Shown piece by piece: positions 1 to 5,513 of a stretch of 5,513 bases of DNA (positions are counted from its first letter, which is position 1; each line of letters starts with the position of its first letter). Source of the stretch: a virus (lineage: Duplodnaviria > Heunggongvirae > Uroviricota > Caudoviricetes); the IMG/VR virus record IMGVR_UViG_2713896790_000006, one strand, 5' to 3'. The translations under genes were made by a program, and so were the position numbers. The notes under the pieces were generated by a model. It searched no databases, was not told where the DNA came from, and saw only the letters and a program-made list of their open reading frames with translations.

Positions 1-481
1 TTTCTTCCTCCGTTGCAATTTCCAGATCTGCAGCATCCTGAAGCGGCGCAATATGCTCACTGGCTACCTGCATCAGGTTGTTTTTTGTTTCTTCCGCCTC
101 CCGGATCCGGAACAGTTTTTCTGCTTCCGTATCCTTCACCCAGGCTGTGCCGTTCCACTTCTGAAACTCCCCTTCCGGCGATAACCAGGTAACATTTTCC
201 GGTAACGGACCGAGTTCAGAAATAAATAACGCGTCGCCGGAAGCCACGTCATAGACGGTTTTTCCCCGATGATCTTCAACGAGATGCCACGATGCCTCAT
301 CACTGTTGAAAACAGCCACGAAGCCTGCCGGAATATCTGGCGGTGCAATATCGGTACTGTTTGCTGGCAGACCTGTATGAGGCGGAATATATGCGTCACC
401 TTCACCAATAAATTCATTAGTTCCGGCCAGCAGATTATAAATTTTTATGGTCTGTGGTTGTTCACTCATTCTGAATGCCAT
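1..481 (-). CDS. tfa: Tail fiber assembly protein Tfa (lambda Tfa-like), partial: start codon in window, 3' end lies beyond the window start
   Basis: Absent from the supplied ORF track (no in-window stop). Manual reverse-complement translation from ATG (complement of 479..481) is open for 160 codons to position 2: [131 protein letters not shown]... This matches the phage lambda Tfa N-terminal region as I recall it. GAGG Shine-Dalgarno (complement of 490..493) lies 8 nt upstream. The ATG overlaps the stf stop by 1 nt (TAATG). Confidence 0.88.
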
Positions 482-3444
482 TATGCAAGCCTCACAATAT
501 AGTTAAATGCGATGTTTTTGACGGTGTTTTCCGCGTTACCAGCAGCGTTAACGGTGATGGTGTGTCCATGTGAACCAATCGCAACGGAGTGCGTATGAGC
601 ACCAATACCGACAGTATGTGCATGTGCGCCTGCGCTTGCAGCAGTGCCGGACAGCGAGTGGGTATGAGCACCATCTGATGATGTCTTCCCTGCATTACGA
701 GTCTGGCCACTACCGCTTGTTGTGCTCATAATCCCCGCGCTTAGATTTGAAATCGCGGTATAACCATTAGGGAAAATGCTCGTGTTCGTGCCACCAAATG
801 CACCGGAACTCTTGTGTTGGTGCGCACCGGCACTATTTGCAGTCCCGCTAATACTATGGGTATGCGCCCCGGTGTTATTCGTGGATTTGGTTCCGTAATC
901 AAACGACGATGTGTTTTTCGTCCCCAAATCCGTACTGGATGCGCTGGCGCTGTGGGTGTGCGATTTAATGCCGTCCTGTTCCTGAGACAATACGGCACGA
1001 CCACTGGCGGGTTTGCCCTTAATCGTCCAGCCACGCATATCAGGGATCACGCCTGACGGATAAGCGGCTGCAAGTTTCGGGTATGCAGATTTGTCAAAAG
1101 TCTGCCCCTGCATCAGGGCATAGCCAGACGGAACGGTATCTGATGGCCACGGGATTGGTGCGCCAGGCGGATAAAACTGCTCTGATGGCGTATAGAGTGA
1201 ATAAACTGTACCGTCCGTTAACCCTTCCGGCTTATTAGCAGAATATGCTGGTGACGTATGAATCGTCACGCTGGCATTACTGGTATAATCCCATTGAATA
1301 TTTACACCAGTCGCATAATTTCCGATTGCAACGTAAATATCGTAAGTATCACCAGATGTATTGACCCAGGCAAAATTTGTAAACCCTGTCGATGTGCGCT
1401 GCCATAAAGCACCAGTAATCCCCTTCGGATTACCATTACCTGCACGCAAAACAAGTTCAGATATACCTGCCTGTTGAGGTGACCCCACGTTAAATCCCGC
1501 GCCACCAATCAACGTAATTGAAACAACAGAACTCGCCTGTGGCATGGTTACCGTTGCTAATTTGAACCAACCAGCACCACCGCTGAATGACATTGTTGTT
1601 GAGTTAAGCGTACCAATATCTTTCGGCGTCAGTGTTATATCCGCTGAAAGCGCCTTACCATTCACCTTACGGGCAGAAGGTACCCGACCATTCGCGTTAT
1701 CATTAGCTGCTTTCACTGCTTTCGGTGTCGCGGCAAGCGTTTCAGATGCGCTGTTGGTTGCACTACTGAGCTGGACAATTCCTTTTTGTGCTGTCGTAGC
1801 GTTCTGAGCAGTATATTTCCCGTTAGCAAGGTCATAGGCTGCCTTTACCGACTTTGGCGTTGCCGCCAGCATTTCAGATGTGCTGTTGGTCGCGTTGCTA
1901 AGCTGAACTATCCCTTTCTGTGCTGTCGTTGCATCCTGTGCGGTGTATTTCCCGTTAGCCAGCTCATACGCGGCCTTAACGGCTTTTGGTGTTGCCGCCA
2001 GTGACTCGGAAGTGCTGTTAGTCGCACTGCTGAGCTGTACTATCCCCTTTTTCGTCGTGCTCGCATCCTCAAGCGCGACGGCGGATGCAATATCCTCTGC
2101 CCGTTTTGCCGCTGTCTCGGCGCGCGTTGCCGCGGATTCCGCCGTACTTTTGCTCTGAGCTGCCGCCGTCGCACTGCCAGCTGCCTCTGTCGCCTTCGTG
2201 GATGCCGTCGTGGCGCTGCCCTTTGCTGCTGACGCCTGTCTGGTCGCCTCATCTTTTGAAGCAGACGCAGATAATGCCGATGACGCCGCCGAACTGGCGG
2301 ACGATGCGGCAGCCGTTTTTGAGGATTCTGCGCTGGTTTCCGACGCTTTCGCGTTCGTCTCGGATGTCTTCGCTGCGGAAGCAGACCTCGCTGCTGCGCT
2401 GGCCTGTACAGCGGCTTCGCCAGCCTTCGTTGTGGCTGTTGAAGCGGACGATGCAGCACTTTCTGCCGATTTTCCGGCGGCGGTGGCACTGGCTGAGGCC
2501 TGCCCGGCATTTGTTGACGCGGCGCTGGCAGATGAGGCAGCCGCTGTTTTTGAGTCTGCTGCTGCGGAGGCACTCTGTGCTGCTGCCGTCTCAGAAGACT
2601 TAGCGTTCGTCTCGGACGTTTTTGCCGCCTTCGCGGAATTTCCTGCCGCTGTTGCCGAGGAGGCTGCACTACTGGCGCTCGAGGCTGCGCTCGTTTCTGA
2701 TGATTTTGCCGCCTCTTTTGAGGCCGCCGCATCCCGGGCTGAGGTGGCAGCTTCTGACGCCTTCGTGGTCGCGGCGGATGCAGAAGTGGCTGCTGATTGT
2801 TGTGACGCTGCCGCATTCGTTTCTGACGTTTTCGCGGCACTGGCACTGGTAGCTGCCGCGCTTTTTGAGGACTCTGCAGCGGCAGCACTTTTTGATGCTT
2901 CAGTAGCCTTTGTTGATGCCGTTCCTGCGCTGGAAGACGCTGACTGAGCCGACGTCGCGGCCTGCCCGGCTGATGTGCTGGCTGCACGTGCTGAGCCTGC
3001 AGCATCAGTCGCATGGGTTGCCGCCTCACGGGCTGATGTGCTGGCATCGCTGGCTGACTTCTTCGCGGCTGCTGTGTTCTGCGCCACTGCGGACGCGTTA
3101 CGCGCCACCTCTTCCACCATCAGTTCAAAACGGCGCAGTGCCTCAGGACGGGCATCATCCTCCGTCATGGCACCGAGAAAATCATTCAGCGTACCGGGTC
3201 GGGAATCTTCATACACGGTGATGGTCCCGGCATGTGACGGCGGGAATCCTTCCACCAACAGAATAACGCTGTACTGACCGTACTCAACGTCCATGCTGTA
3301 ACGCCCGGCCTCATCCGGATTTTCTGAGGCCAGCGTGTTCACCACCACCGTGGTGCTGTTACGTTTTGCTTTCAGCTGGATTGTGCAGTTCTGTACCGGT
3401 TTTCCTGTGCCGTCTTTCAGTACACCTGAAATCTTTACTGCCAT
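481..3444 (-). CDS. stf: Side tail fiber protein Stf (lambda Stf / T4 gp37-like tail fiber), full length, 987 aa from ATG
   Basis: Single uninterrupted minus-strand ORF. N-terminus [26 protein letters not shown]... is the conserved lambda Stf anchor region. Followed by a long Ala/Ser/Thr-rich low-complexity shaft, three tandem ~44-aa repeats ([35 protein letters not shown]), the conserved tail-fiber motif [47 protein letters not shown], and seven HxH His boxes near the C-terminus, ending ...[11 protein letters not shown]. The track starts at a GTG at 3450 (MNM...); I prefer the ATG at 3442..3444, which gives the conserved MAVKISG start with a G-rich SD-like run 5 nt upstream. Stop is TAA (complement of 481..483). 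Confidence 0.93.
1690..2058 (-). repeat. In-frame tandem repeat inside stf: about three copies of a 129-132 bp unit (43-44 aa phage tail-fibre repeat)
   Basis: Translated copies: [43 protein letters not shown] / [44 protein letters not shown] / [37 protein letters not shown] (third copy degenerates). At DNA level the motif tatttcccgttagc recurs at 1814 and 1946, a 132-bp period. Confidence 0.85.
2059..3132 (-). repeat. Low-complexity Ala/Ser/Thr-rich coding region of stf (fiber shaft) with degenerate short repeats
   Basis: Stf residues ~105-462 consist almost entirely of A/S/T/K/E, with recurring AAKTSETNA(K/A)(S/A)SET... units. The GC-rich, codon-biased DNA lacks stops in several frames, which explains the long overlapping track ORFs 2040..3047(-), 2198..2947(+), 2085..2603(+) and others. 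Confidence 0.7.
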
Positions 3445-3453
3445 ATTCACCCC

Positions 3454-3482
3454 ACAAAAAAGCCCGCCTGAACAGGCGGGCT
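3454..3482 (-). terminator. Rho-independent terminator between lom and stf, oriented for minus-strand transcription
   Basis: Perfect GC-rich inverted repeat: 3461..3468 agcccgcc pairs with 3475..3482 ggcgggct, loop tgaaca. On the minus strand it is followed by TTTTTGTGGG (complement of the A-run at 3456..3460). It lies 27 nt downstream of the lom stop and about 10 nt upstream of the stf ATG. Confidence 0.7.
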
Positions 3483-3508: not shown

Positions 3509-3998
3509 TCAGAACTTATAACCGACACCCACGATGNNNNNNNNNNNNNNNNNNNNNNNNNNNNNNNNNNNNNNNNNNNNNNNNNNTGTTGTCAGTTACG
3601 CGGAGATAATCCCCGGAGAAAGTCGACACACGGCTGTAAGCCACACCCGCCATCGCATACGCGCTGAACCATTCATTCACGCGCACAGACGGCCCCACCA
3701 TCACGCTGAACCAGCGGTTACGCACGGAATCTTCATGCCAGCGGGTATCGCTGTAACGGGTAAGCTGGCGATTCTTGTCTCCTGCATAGCTGAATGACGT
3801 CACCAGCCCCAGTGTGTCCGTAAACTCATAACGGTATTTCACGTTAATCCCGTTAAGATCATCGCTGCCGGGAACGTTCGTCGAGGCATGAAGATACCCC
3901 GCGCTCAGCGTGGACTGATGTTCAGATGCCCATGCAGGCGCACCGGATACGGCCAGACAAATGGCTGCGGACAAAATGGCGGCATAAAGTTTACGCAT
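3509..3998 (-). CDS. lom: Lom outer membrane protein (Ail/Lom/OmpX family beta-barrel; lambda lom moron), interrupted by an N-run
   Basis: Translation from ATG (complement of 3996..3998): [137 protein letters not shown], with a signal peptide and AWA/S cleavage site. This matches lambda Lom as I recall it. After the N-run the sequence encodes ...IVGVGYKF-stop (TGA, complement of 3509..3511), a typical outer-membrane-protein C-terminal strand ending in Phe, but in a different frame from the N-terminal part. GAGG SD (complement of 4004..4007) is 5 nt upstream of the ATG. The track ORF 3516..3998 stops at a frame-shifted TAA that is an artefact of the N-run length. Confidence 0.85.
3537..3586. 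other. Run of 50 N (assembly gap or masked segment) inside lom
   Basis: Fifty consecutive ambiguous bases. The lom flanks are out of frame across it, so the run is not length-preserving. Confidence 0.95.
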
Positions 3999-4019: not shown

Positions 4020-4046
4020 AATAAAAAAGGCACCATTTCTGGTGCC
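4020..4046 (-). terminator. Rho-independent terminator between J and lom, oriented for minus-strand transcription
   Basis: Perfect 7-bp stem: 4029..4035 ggcacca pairs with 4040..4046 tggtgcc, loop tttc. On the minus strand it is followed by TTTTTTATT (complement of 4020..4028). It sits 22 nt downstream of the J stop and about 20 nt upstream of the lom ATG. Confidence 0.75.
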
Positions 4047-4067
4047 CTTATATGGGTTATAACAATT

Positions 4068-5513
4068 TCAACGAATACTGATGCCGGAAGCGGCTTTTTT
4101 GGTCACAATCACCGTACAGTCGGTGATATTACCTGCCCACTGATTGCCTTTATGGAAAACCTTAAACTCCAGAGTGACGCTTCCCCTGCCACTCGGCATA
4201 TCAATAACCGCACTGTAGCTACCGGGAATGGCCCCTTTAGTTTCTCTGGATGCGATTAATACACCGTTTTGGCGAACTTCAAAACCATAACCCGTGTATC
4301 TTGTACCTCCCGGGTTATTACCACTTCCCGGATCGCTATACGCTATTCCGTTAAAGATAATGGGCGGAATAATGATTTGACGGTCAAAGTTATGATCATC
4401 GCTTATGGTGACTGTAACCGTCCCGTTTGGTGTTTCCGTGTTACCCCACGTACCAGCCTGTTTCGGAAATGATTTGGATACAGCTTTAACGAAATCCCCT
4501 CTGACCTGAGTCGCCTCCAGCATGCCCTTAATCGTACAGTTTTCATTTACCGTGACATTGTTGAGCGTCCCGGCGTTCGCATTCACACTGCCACTGATAT
4601 CCGCATTTTTAGCGGTCAGCTTTCCGTCTGATGTCAGGGAAAATACCGGTGGATTTCCACCGCTGGTAATGGTGGGGGCCGTCAGGCGCTTCAGGAACAC
4701 GTCGTTCATGAATATCTGGTTGCCCTGCGCCACAAACATCGGCGTTTCATTCCCGTTTGCCGGATCAATAAACGCGATACGATTGGCGGCAACCAGAAAC
4801 TGGCTCAGTTTGCCTTCCTCTGTATCCTCCATGCTGAGGCCAATACCCGCGACATAATGTTTGCCGTCTTTGGTCTGCTCAATTTTGACGCCCCACATGG
4901 CATTCCACTTATCGTTAGCATCCTTCCACTCTTTCGAAAACTGCTCCAGTCTGCTGGCGTTATCCTCCGTCAGGTCGACTTTTTCCAGCAGCTCTTTACC
5001 GAGATGGGATTCGGTTATCAGGCCTTTGAAAAAATCCAGGTAACCTTCGGCATCATCGCTCGCCCGACCAACAGCCTCCACGAATGCCGATTTGCCAACG
5101 GTGTTCACACTGCGAACGTAAAAATAATAATTATGGCCCGGCCTGATATTGATACTGGCGGCTATCCAGTACAGCGCCGTGCCAAGATAGCGTGCTGTGG
5201 TTTCAACCTGCCTGATATCCGCAATCCGCTTTTCCGAGAACCAGAACTCAAACTGTACCGTCGGGTCATAAACCGCAAGATGCGGCGTGGCGGTTATCTG
5301 AAAATAGCCCGGCGTCAGCTCAATCCGCGACGGCGCTGCCGGTGCGGCAATCCGGAACGATACCGACGCCGGATCGCCCTGCTGCTCCCACGCATTTACT
5401 GCCCGGACTGTCAGCCTGTAGTTCCCCAGAGCCAGTTGTGTGAAGCGGTAAGTGGTTTCCGTCGTCCGGGCCGTGCTGACCAGCCGCTCACTGCCGTCAT
5501 CCGCTGCCACGGT
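4068..5513 (-). CDS. J: Host specificity protein J (central tail fiber / tip attachment protein), C-terminal ~481 codons; 5' end lies beyond the window end
   Basis: Minus-strand frame is open from the window edge to a TGA (complement of 4068..4070). The track's initial M is a GTG at the window edge, not a true start. The translation (...[63 protein letters not shown]...[54 protein letters not shown]...) matches the C-terminal third of lambda J as I recall it. Its position immediately upstream of lom reproduces lambda J-lom-stf-tfa synteny. Confidence 0.9.

Follow-up and report, generated by a model that had tools for sequence, protein, structure and literature searches.

The distal tail module

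The stretch of DNA analysed here (the window; 5,513 nucleotides, IMG/VR virus record IMGVR_UViG_2713896790_000006) carries all of its genes on the minus strand; together they make up the distal tail module of a lambdoid prophage. The tail-tip gene J, present with its 3′ part, occupies positions 4068..5513 and runs off the window; it was assigned from its open reading frame (ORF), from a gpJ annotation, and from the Pfam families Phage_Tail_Tip and Ig_GpJ_C on the neighbouring gene. J is followed by lom, and lom by stf (481..3444), whose ORF encodes a side tail fibre of 987 aa from an ATG at 3444. The placement of lom between J and stf is that of lambdoid tail modules. The 5′ part of tfa, the tail fibre assembly gene, occupies positions 1..481, and its translation matches the 191-aa Tfa of a clonal locus (L005), with the family Caudo_TAP. 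After the module, the clonal genomes have genes for a pin-type invertase, a ynaE/ydfK-like product, an MFS transporter and a mannitol dehydrogenase.

Two terminator-like hairpins, both on the minus strand, flank lom. The hairpin that lies after the J stop codon and ahead of the lom start (4026..4049) has a 10-pair stem followed by a T-run, TTTATTGCAG, while the hairpin between the lom stop and stf (3461..3482) has a 9-pair stem with seven GC pairs, followed by the T-run TTTTTGTGGG. The record of phage 434 has terminators annotated in the same lom–stf interval.

The fibre genes of the window have several features of their own. The stop codon of stf and the start codon of tfa share one base (TAATG, 479..483, minus strand), an overlap that suggests translational coupling. 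No Pfam family is on record for the 987-aa Stf. Its gene contains a 132-nt tandem repeat at 1736-2046 (minus strand), counted as 2.4 copies by TRF and as three copies (100, 76 and 62%) by a repeat finder, which encodes repeated units of the fibre. A long low-complexity region rich in Ala, Ser and Thr lies at ~2050-3050 (minus strand) and includes 41-nt repeats at a spacing of 231 nt (family D2 in the chromosome LR134238.1, described below), together with long spurious plus-strand ORFs. The C-terminal domain (~560-960, minus strand) contains six His-x-His motifs (GAHTHS, GAHQHK, GAHTHS, GAHAHT, GAHTHS and GSHGHT), which we take to be similar to the metal-binding HxH repeats found at the tips of long tail fibres. 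In LR134238.1 (L006 6964-8228), no tfa is called and the invertase has 153 aa where sister contigs have 196 aa, while the tfa DNA translates cleanly; these departures probably reflect a difference in gene calling or an indel further downstream in the assembly.

The lom gene and its run of N

The lom gene starts with an ATG at 3998..3996 on the minus strand and is readable in two parts. The 5′ part (3587..3998, minus strand) comprises codons 1–137 and the first base of codon 138, is 100% identical to LR134238.1, and is annotated as Ail/Lom in relatives. The 3′ end (3509..3536, minus strand, reverse-complement frame 1) comprises the last base of codon 191, codons 192–199 (IVGVGYKF) and a TGA stop codon. 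The two parts are separated by a run of 50 N at 3537..3586, a feature without strand that we treat as a placeholder of unpreserved length; by letter count, these 50 letters are the sole non-ACGT letters of the whole window. The window itself thereby shows 145 of the 199 lom codons.

The reading frame does not run through the N at their literal length. Specifically, the Asn137 codon (AAC) is the complement of 3588..3590 and codon 138 opens with base 3587, while the frame to the left of the N-run reads ...IVGVGYKF*, with the TGA as the complement of 3509..3511. The Asn137 codon and the stop codon are separated by 76 nt (3512..3587), or by 79 nt with the stop codon included, and both numbers equal 1 modulo 3, indicating that 50 N is not the true length of an intact lom. 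Read literally, the lom ORF of the window slips frame and stops at 3516..3518, yielding 160 aa that end in ...HRGCRL*. The frame result is plain counting, to which a chance test is not applicable; the initial annotation had given the same coordinates for the N-run and the same break of frame (79 nt, 1 modulo 3), and both proved correct on recount.

Both termini of the protein can be read in the window. The N-terminus is, judged by eye, signal-peptide-like, with MRK, a hydrophobic core, and A-W-A before SEHQ. The C-terminus ends in Phe (...GYKF), and a C-terminal aromatic residue is the β-signal usual in outer-membrane barrels.

The hidden stretch in an identical chromosome and in relatives

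To look up clonal genomes by exact sequence, we used as query the Stf protein, which is complete and adjoins lom. The exact protein is encoded on at least 24 contigs (24 of 34 index blocks read). One of them, LR134238.1 (L006; assembly GCA_900636225.1), is a complete E. coli chromosome of 5.28 Mb, with the locus at positions 4,499,647-4,510,610, and it matches the window at 1927 of 1927 bases on one side of the N-run and at 3536 of 3536 bases on the other. Between these two blocks lie 160 nt, none of them N. The initial annotation had read the N-run as a placeholder or mask and not as real sequence length; the 160 nt, free of N, that stand in place of the 50 N in a chromosome with 100% identical flanks bear out this reading, as does the spacing of 160 nt in all other related loci fetched with both flanks.

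The identity of the window with this chromosome is further defined by a private variant. At position 1696, the window and LR134238.1 have a synonymous base in common that is absent from the five other clonal loci that align gap-free (L005, L007, L009, L010 and L011). LR134238.1 alone agrees with the window at this position and is 100% identical to both of its flanks; on the 5463 matching bases and the one private variant, we therefore identify the window as the LR134238.1 chromosome or a clone thereof. Among complete RefSeq E. coli genomes, a set without NZ_LR134238, the best match of the whole window is 99.3%, which places the source of the window outside this set.

When the 160 nt of LR134238.1 are put into the window, they yield a lom ORF of 600 nt and 199 aa. 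The hidden stretch corresponds to lom gene positions 413..572 (L006 3749-3908), which begins and ends on the second base of a codon (138 and 191, respectively), and covers residues 138 to 191. The view of the initial annotation that the integrity of lom cannot be judged thus holds for the window alone, but not with the clonal genome at hand, where lom is intact over its 600 nt. The initial annotation had also expected ~180 nt to be missing, an estimate based on the 206-aa Lom of phage lambda; lambda Lom (NP_040601) does have 206 aa, and its 621-nt gene predicts 181 nt, but the measured length is 160 nt, as the allele of the window has 199 aa and 600 nt.

The reconstructed Lom matches the Pfam family PF06316 (Ail_Lom) with 399.2 bits, against a cut-off of 23, and residues 1-199 of the gene product restored from LR134238.1 fall on profile positions 1-199 of 199. 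Among solved barrels, it aligns with lambda Lom (PDB 9wso chain C, E 8e-49), OmpX (1qj8/2m06, E 4e-18) and Ail (3qra, E 9e-17), and all three alignments reach residue 199. By homology, the gene product unambiguously belongs to the Ail/Lom family of outer-membrane β-barrel proteins, the solved barrels of which (Lom, OmpX and Ail) are eight-stranded. Since the 54 hidden residues form part of the barrel, their true loss would inactivate Lom. A search of the restored region against Rfam returned nothing at gathering score or close to it; the best hit had 24 bits, against a required 50, to an irrelevant eukaryotic lncRNA model.

Lambda Lom belongs to the same family, PF06316, and is encoded in the same slot between J and the side tail fibre gene. 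The alignment covers residues 11-199, and the C-terminal 27 aa are nearly identical, whereas the N-terminal two thirds are well diverged, the nucleotide alignment to lambda is only partial, and the window allele has 199 aa against the 206 aa of lambda. The lom of the window is a 434/h434-type allele (199 aa), which is common among E. coli prophages and present in most of them. The lom gene of lambda is transcribed in lysogens, and its outer-membrane product has been implicated in adhesion to buccal epithelial cells (PMC1151598, PMC4198210).

The spacing of 160 nt recurs across relatives of the window. Of 11 loci, ten have 160 nt between the flanks (L001, L003-L010 and L014), and one (L002) was judged by its 600-nt lom and a span of 1111 bases; the loci with 160 nt include E. 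coli S40, two IMG/VR contigs, six further contigs encoding the identical Stf, and one metagenome contig. The 160 nt themselves are base-for-base identical in eight of the nine loci from which they were extracted. Lambda h434 has a 600-nt lom and spans 1111 bases for a query of 1001 bases, and the same span was obtained for this query, which includes the 50 N, in all of the best 30 complete E. coli genomes. In a sample of two-piece matches spread over the whole ranking, a 250-base query gave spans of 340-360 bases, and once trimming of the query ends was allowed for, nearly all of them were 357-360. The short cases were H123 (355) and H124 (341), corresponding to spacings at the site of the N-run of ~155 nt in H123 and, with trimming allowed for, ~144 nt in H124. 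The reconstructed 360-nt stretch was found to at least 80% in one place in 3925 of the 4735 matching E. coli records. An exact 200-nt pattern had two matches in IMG/VR, one in the metagenome collection, and none among species-representative genomes; the three matching loci are 93-97% identical to the window elsewhere, which rules them out as its source, and all have 160 nt at the gap. No run of N was present in lom in any of the 24 contig blocks read, nor at the lom site in LR134238.1 and the six other places returned. Neither the related loci nor the identical chromosome gave evidence of a deletion. Taken with the restored ORF, these comparisons support the conclusion that lom in the clone of the window is intact, being neither frameshifted nor deleted nor interrupted, and that it is an ordinary, very common prophage gene. 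Lom-like sequence is also multi-copy in E. coli genomes, with a median of two and up to 14 places per genome.

Two of the clonal loci differ from the window in other respects. In L007 (3337-3936), lom is a mosaic, in which the first ~378 nt show a divergence of ~18% from the window whereas the remaining 3′ part, like all of stf, is essentially identical, a pattern that indicates recombination within lom between prophage lineages. In L008 (LR134246.1, 1-3936), J is in four called fragments and lom has 147 aa, with nine gap openings relative to the window, while the hidden 160 nt are still identical; this fragmentation looks like uncorrected long-read indel error, not real decay.

Lom homologues interrupted by an insertion sequence do exist. 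In the Rac prophage of E. coli K-12, lomR is split by IS5, in the arrangement lomR'-insH5-'lomR (PMC11677980; bioRxiv 10.1101/2021.11.15.468771). K-12 lomR is near-identical to the restored lom, at 159 of 160 positions in the hidden stretch and at 209 of 210 in the adjoining part, but it carries the 1.2-kb IS5 and is without the 5′ end of the gene, whereas the clone of the window has an uninterrupted full-length lom and no IS5 end. The 3′ fragment of K-12 lomR beyond IS5 consists of the hidden 160 nt and the terminal 28 nt of lom. According to a preprint, this C-terminal portion of LomR is by itself able to induce the VqmA-directed lysis programme of vibriophage VP882 (bioRxiv 10.1101/2021.11.15.468771).

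The right edge of the N-run falls at this IS5 site. Specifically, the 4-bp target duplication of K-12 IS5 (CTTG on the plus strand of the window, CAAG in the gene) corresponds to reconstructed positions 3695..3698, and the hidden stretch ends at reconstructed position 3696, placing the right edge (3586/3587) inside the duplication; the corresponding sites of the K-12 duplication are L013 1799-1806 and 2993-3000. For a mask placed at random, this coincidence is a ~1% event, judged post hoc, and it may be due to chance. Alternatively, the limits of the stretch may have been set by an alignment against a 3′ fragment of the K-12 type, or by a branch of the assembly graph at a second copy of lom::IS5. 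The left edge of the N-run is not a divergence point relative to K-12 Rac. We also considered the edges as repeat or mosaic boundaries, such as a collapsed short-read assembly would produce, and rejected this, as the divergence of L007 tapers at gene positions 378-452, with no break at 412/413. The hidden stretch shows no extra conservation relative to the rest of lom and is not repeated within 11 kb.

Origin of the N-run

We propose that the 50 N are a fixed-length placeholder for 160 bp of ordinary coding sequence that lie within the 3′ third of lom. In all likelihood, the N-run stands for part of an intact prophage lom and is a data artefact, with no biological oddity behind it. The run resembles a conventional placeholder in being pure N, in having a length unrelated to the true one, and in having flanks that are seamless with the reference; it differs from a conventional placeholder in that none is present in the assemblies of the clone that were read, and in its length. 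By INSDC convention, gaps of unknown length are given as 100, not 50. Since the length departs from this convention and no such N-run is present in the clonal assemblies read, a mask applied by whoever prepared the data is the likelier origin. An insertion of the N after deposition, by a data preparer or masker, is also favoured because the identical record LR134238.1 is gap-free and because some stretches in the sequence collections used are documented as having been replaced with N, and we consider it probable, with no great confidence.

A genuine scaffold gap, in which the 50 N would join two contigs in a short-read draft of the same clone, is possible but rather doubtful, and would leave lom equally intact around the same 160 bp. 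Such a gap could arise if an assembler failed to resolve the 3′ part of lom, shared by several lambdoid prophages within one genome, and lom-like sequence is multi-copy (median two, maximum 14). Moreover, a short-read metagenome contig (L011 1-107) has its first base within the hidden stretch, 107 nt short of the lom end, showing that short-read assemblies do break in lom here, and the right edge lies in the K-12 IS5 target duplication, as would result from a graph branch at a second lom::IS5 copy. However, the one record with 100% identity is a complete chromosome free of gaps, the contigs read (24 of 34 blocks) contain no such gap, and the left edge matches no divergence point, either with K-12 Rac or with the mosaic allele of L007; nor is the hidden stretch extra-conserved or repeated within 11 kb, as noted above. 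We thus rank a mask applied after deposition above a scaffold gap in another assembly of the clone, and the biology is the same either way.

Readings in which lom itself is damaged fare far worse. The initial annotation had raised an insertion sequence as a possible content of the gap, and a mobile element interrupting lom, such as IS5 at the K-12 CAAG site, would have broken the assembly and would make the N-run stand for more than 1 kb of foreign DNA. The idea is sound in that a lom homologue with an insertion exists (K-12 lomR::IS5), whose target duplication straddles the position of the right edge, and in that K-12-derived genomes (H198-H201) break at position 99 of the reconstructed query. 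It fails for the window, in which no IS5 terminal repeat was found anywhere at up to three mismatches, and for the identical chromosome and all clonal contigs, in which lom is uninterrupted. In addition, if an insertion were the sole event, the 160 nt should persist to one side of the N-run, where the window does not have them, and in the spread sample interrupted copies of lom occur only in K-12-lineage strains and in one other record. The initial annotation had itself stated that uninterrupted lom-like sequence across the gap would exclude an insertion, and such sequence is what lies there. We consider an interruption very improbable, and the same applies to a source isolate that differs from its clonal chromosome, for example by a second IS5-type insertion at CAAG, possibly with loss of the 160 bp, the N-run then marking the point at which assembly failed. 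If such a second insertion were true, the CAAG site in lom would be a recurrent IS5 target. Least credible is that the 50 positions are real but uncalled, which would make lom a pseudogene with a 110-bp deletion and a frameshift. This reading draws solely on the literal ORF of the window, 160 aa and out of frame, while a spacing of 50 nt is present in no related locus and in no complete genome sampled; the spacings seen are 160 nt, as in the identical chromosome, and rarely ~155 (H123) or ~144 (H124).

The placeholder reading was reached without raw reads, as an exact neighbouring protein and a private variant suffice to pin the window to one deposited chromosome and so resolve the gap. Its importance is limited to data hygiene, and knowledge of Lom, of lambdoid prophages and of IS5 is unchanged by it. 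A literal annotation of the window would, however, miscall lom as a frameshifted pseudogene of 160 aa.
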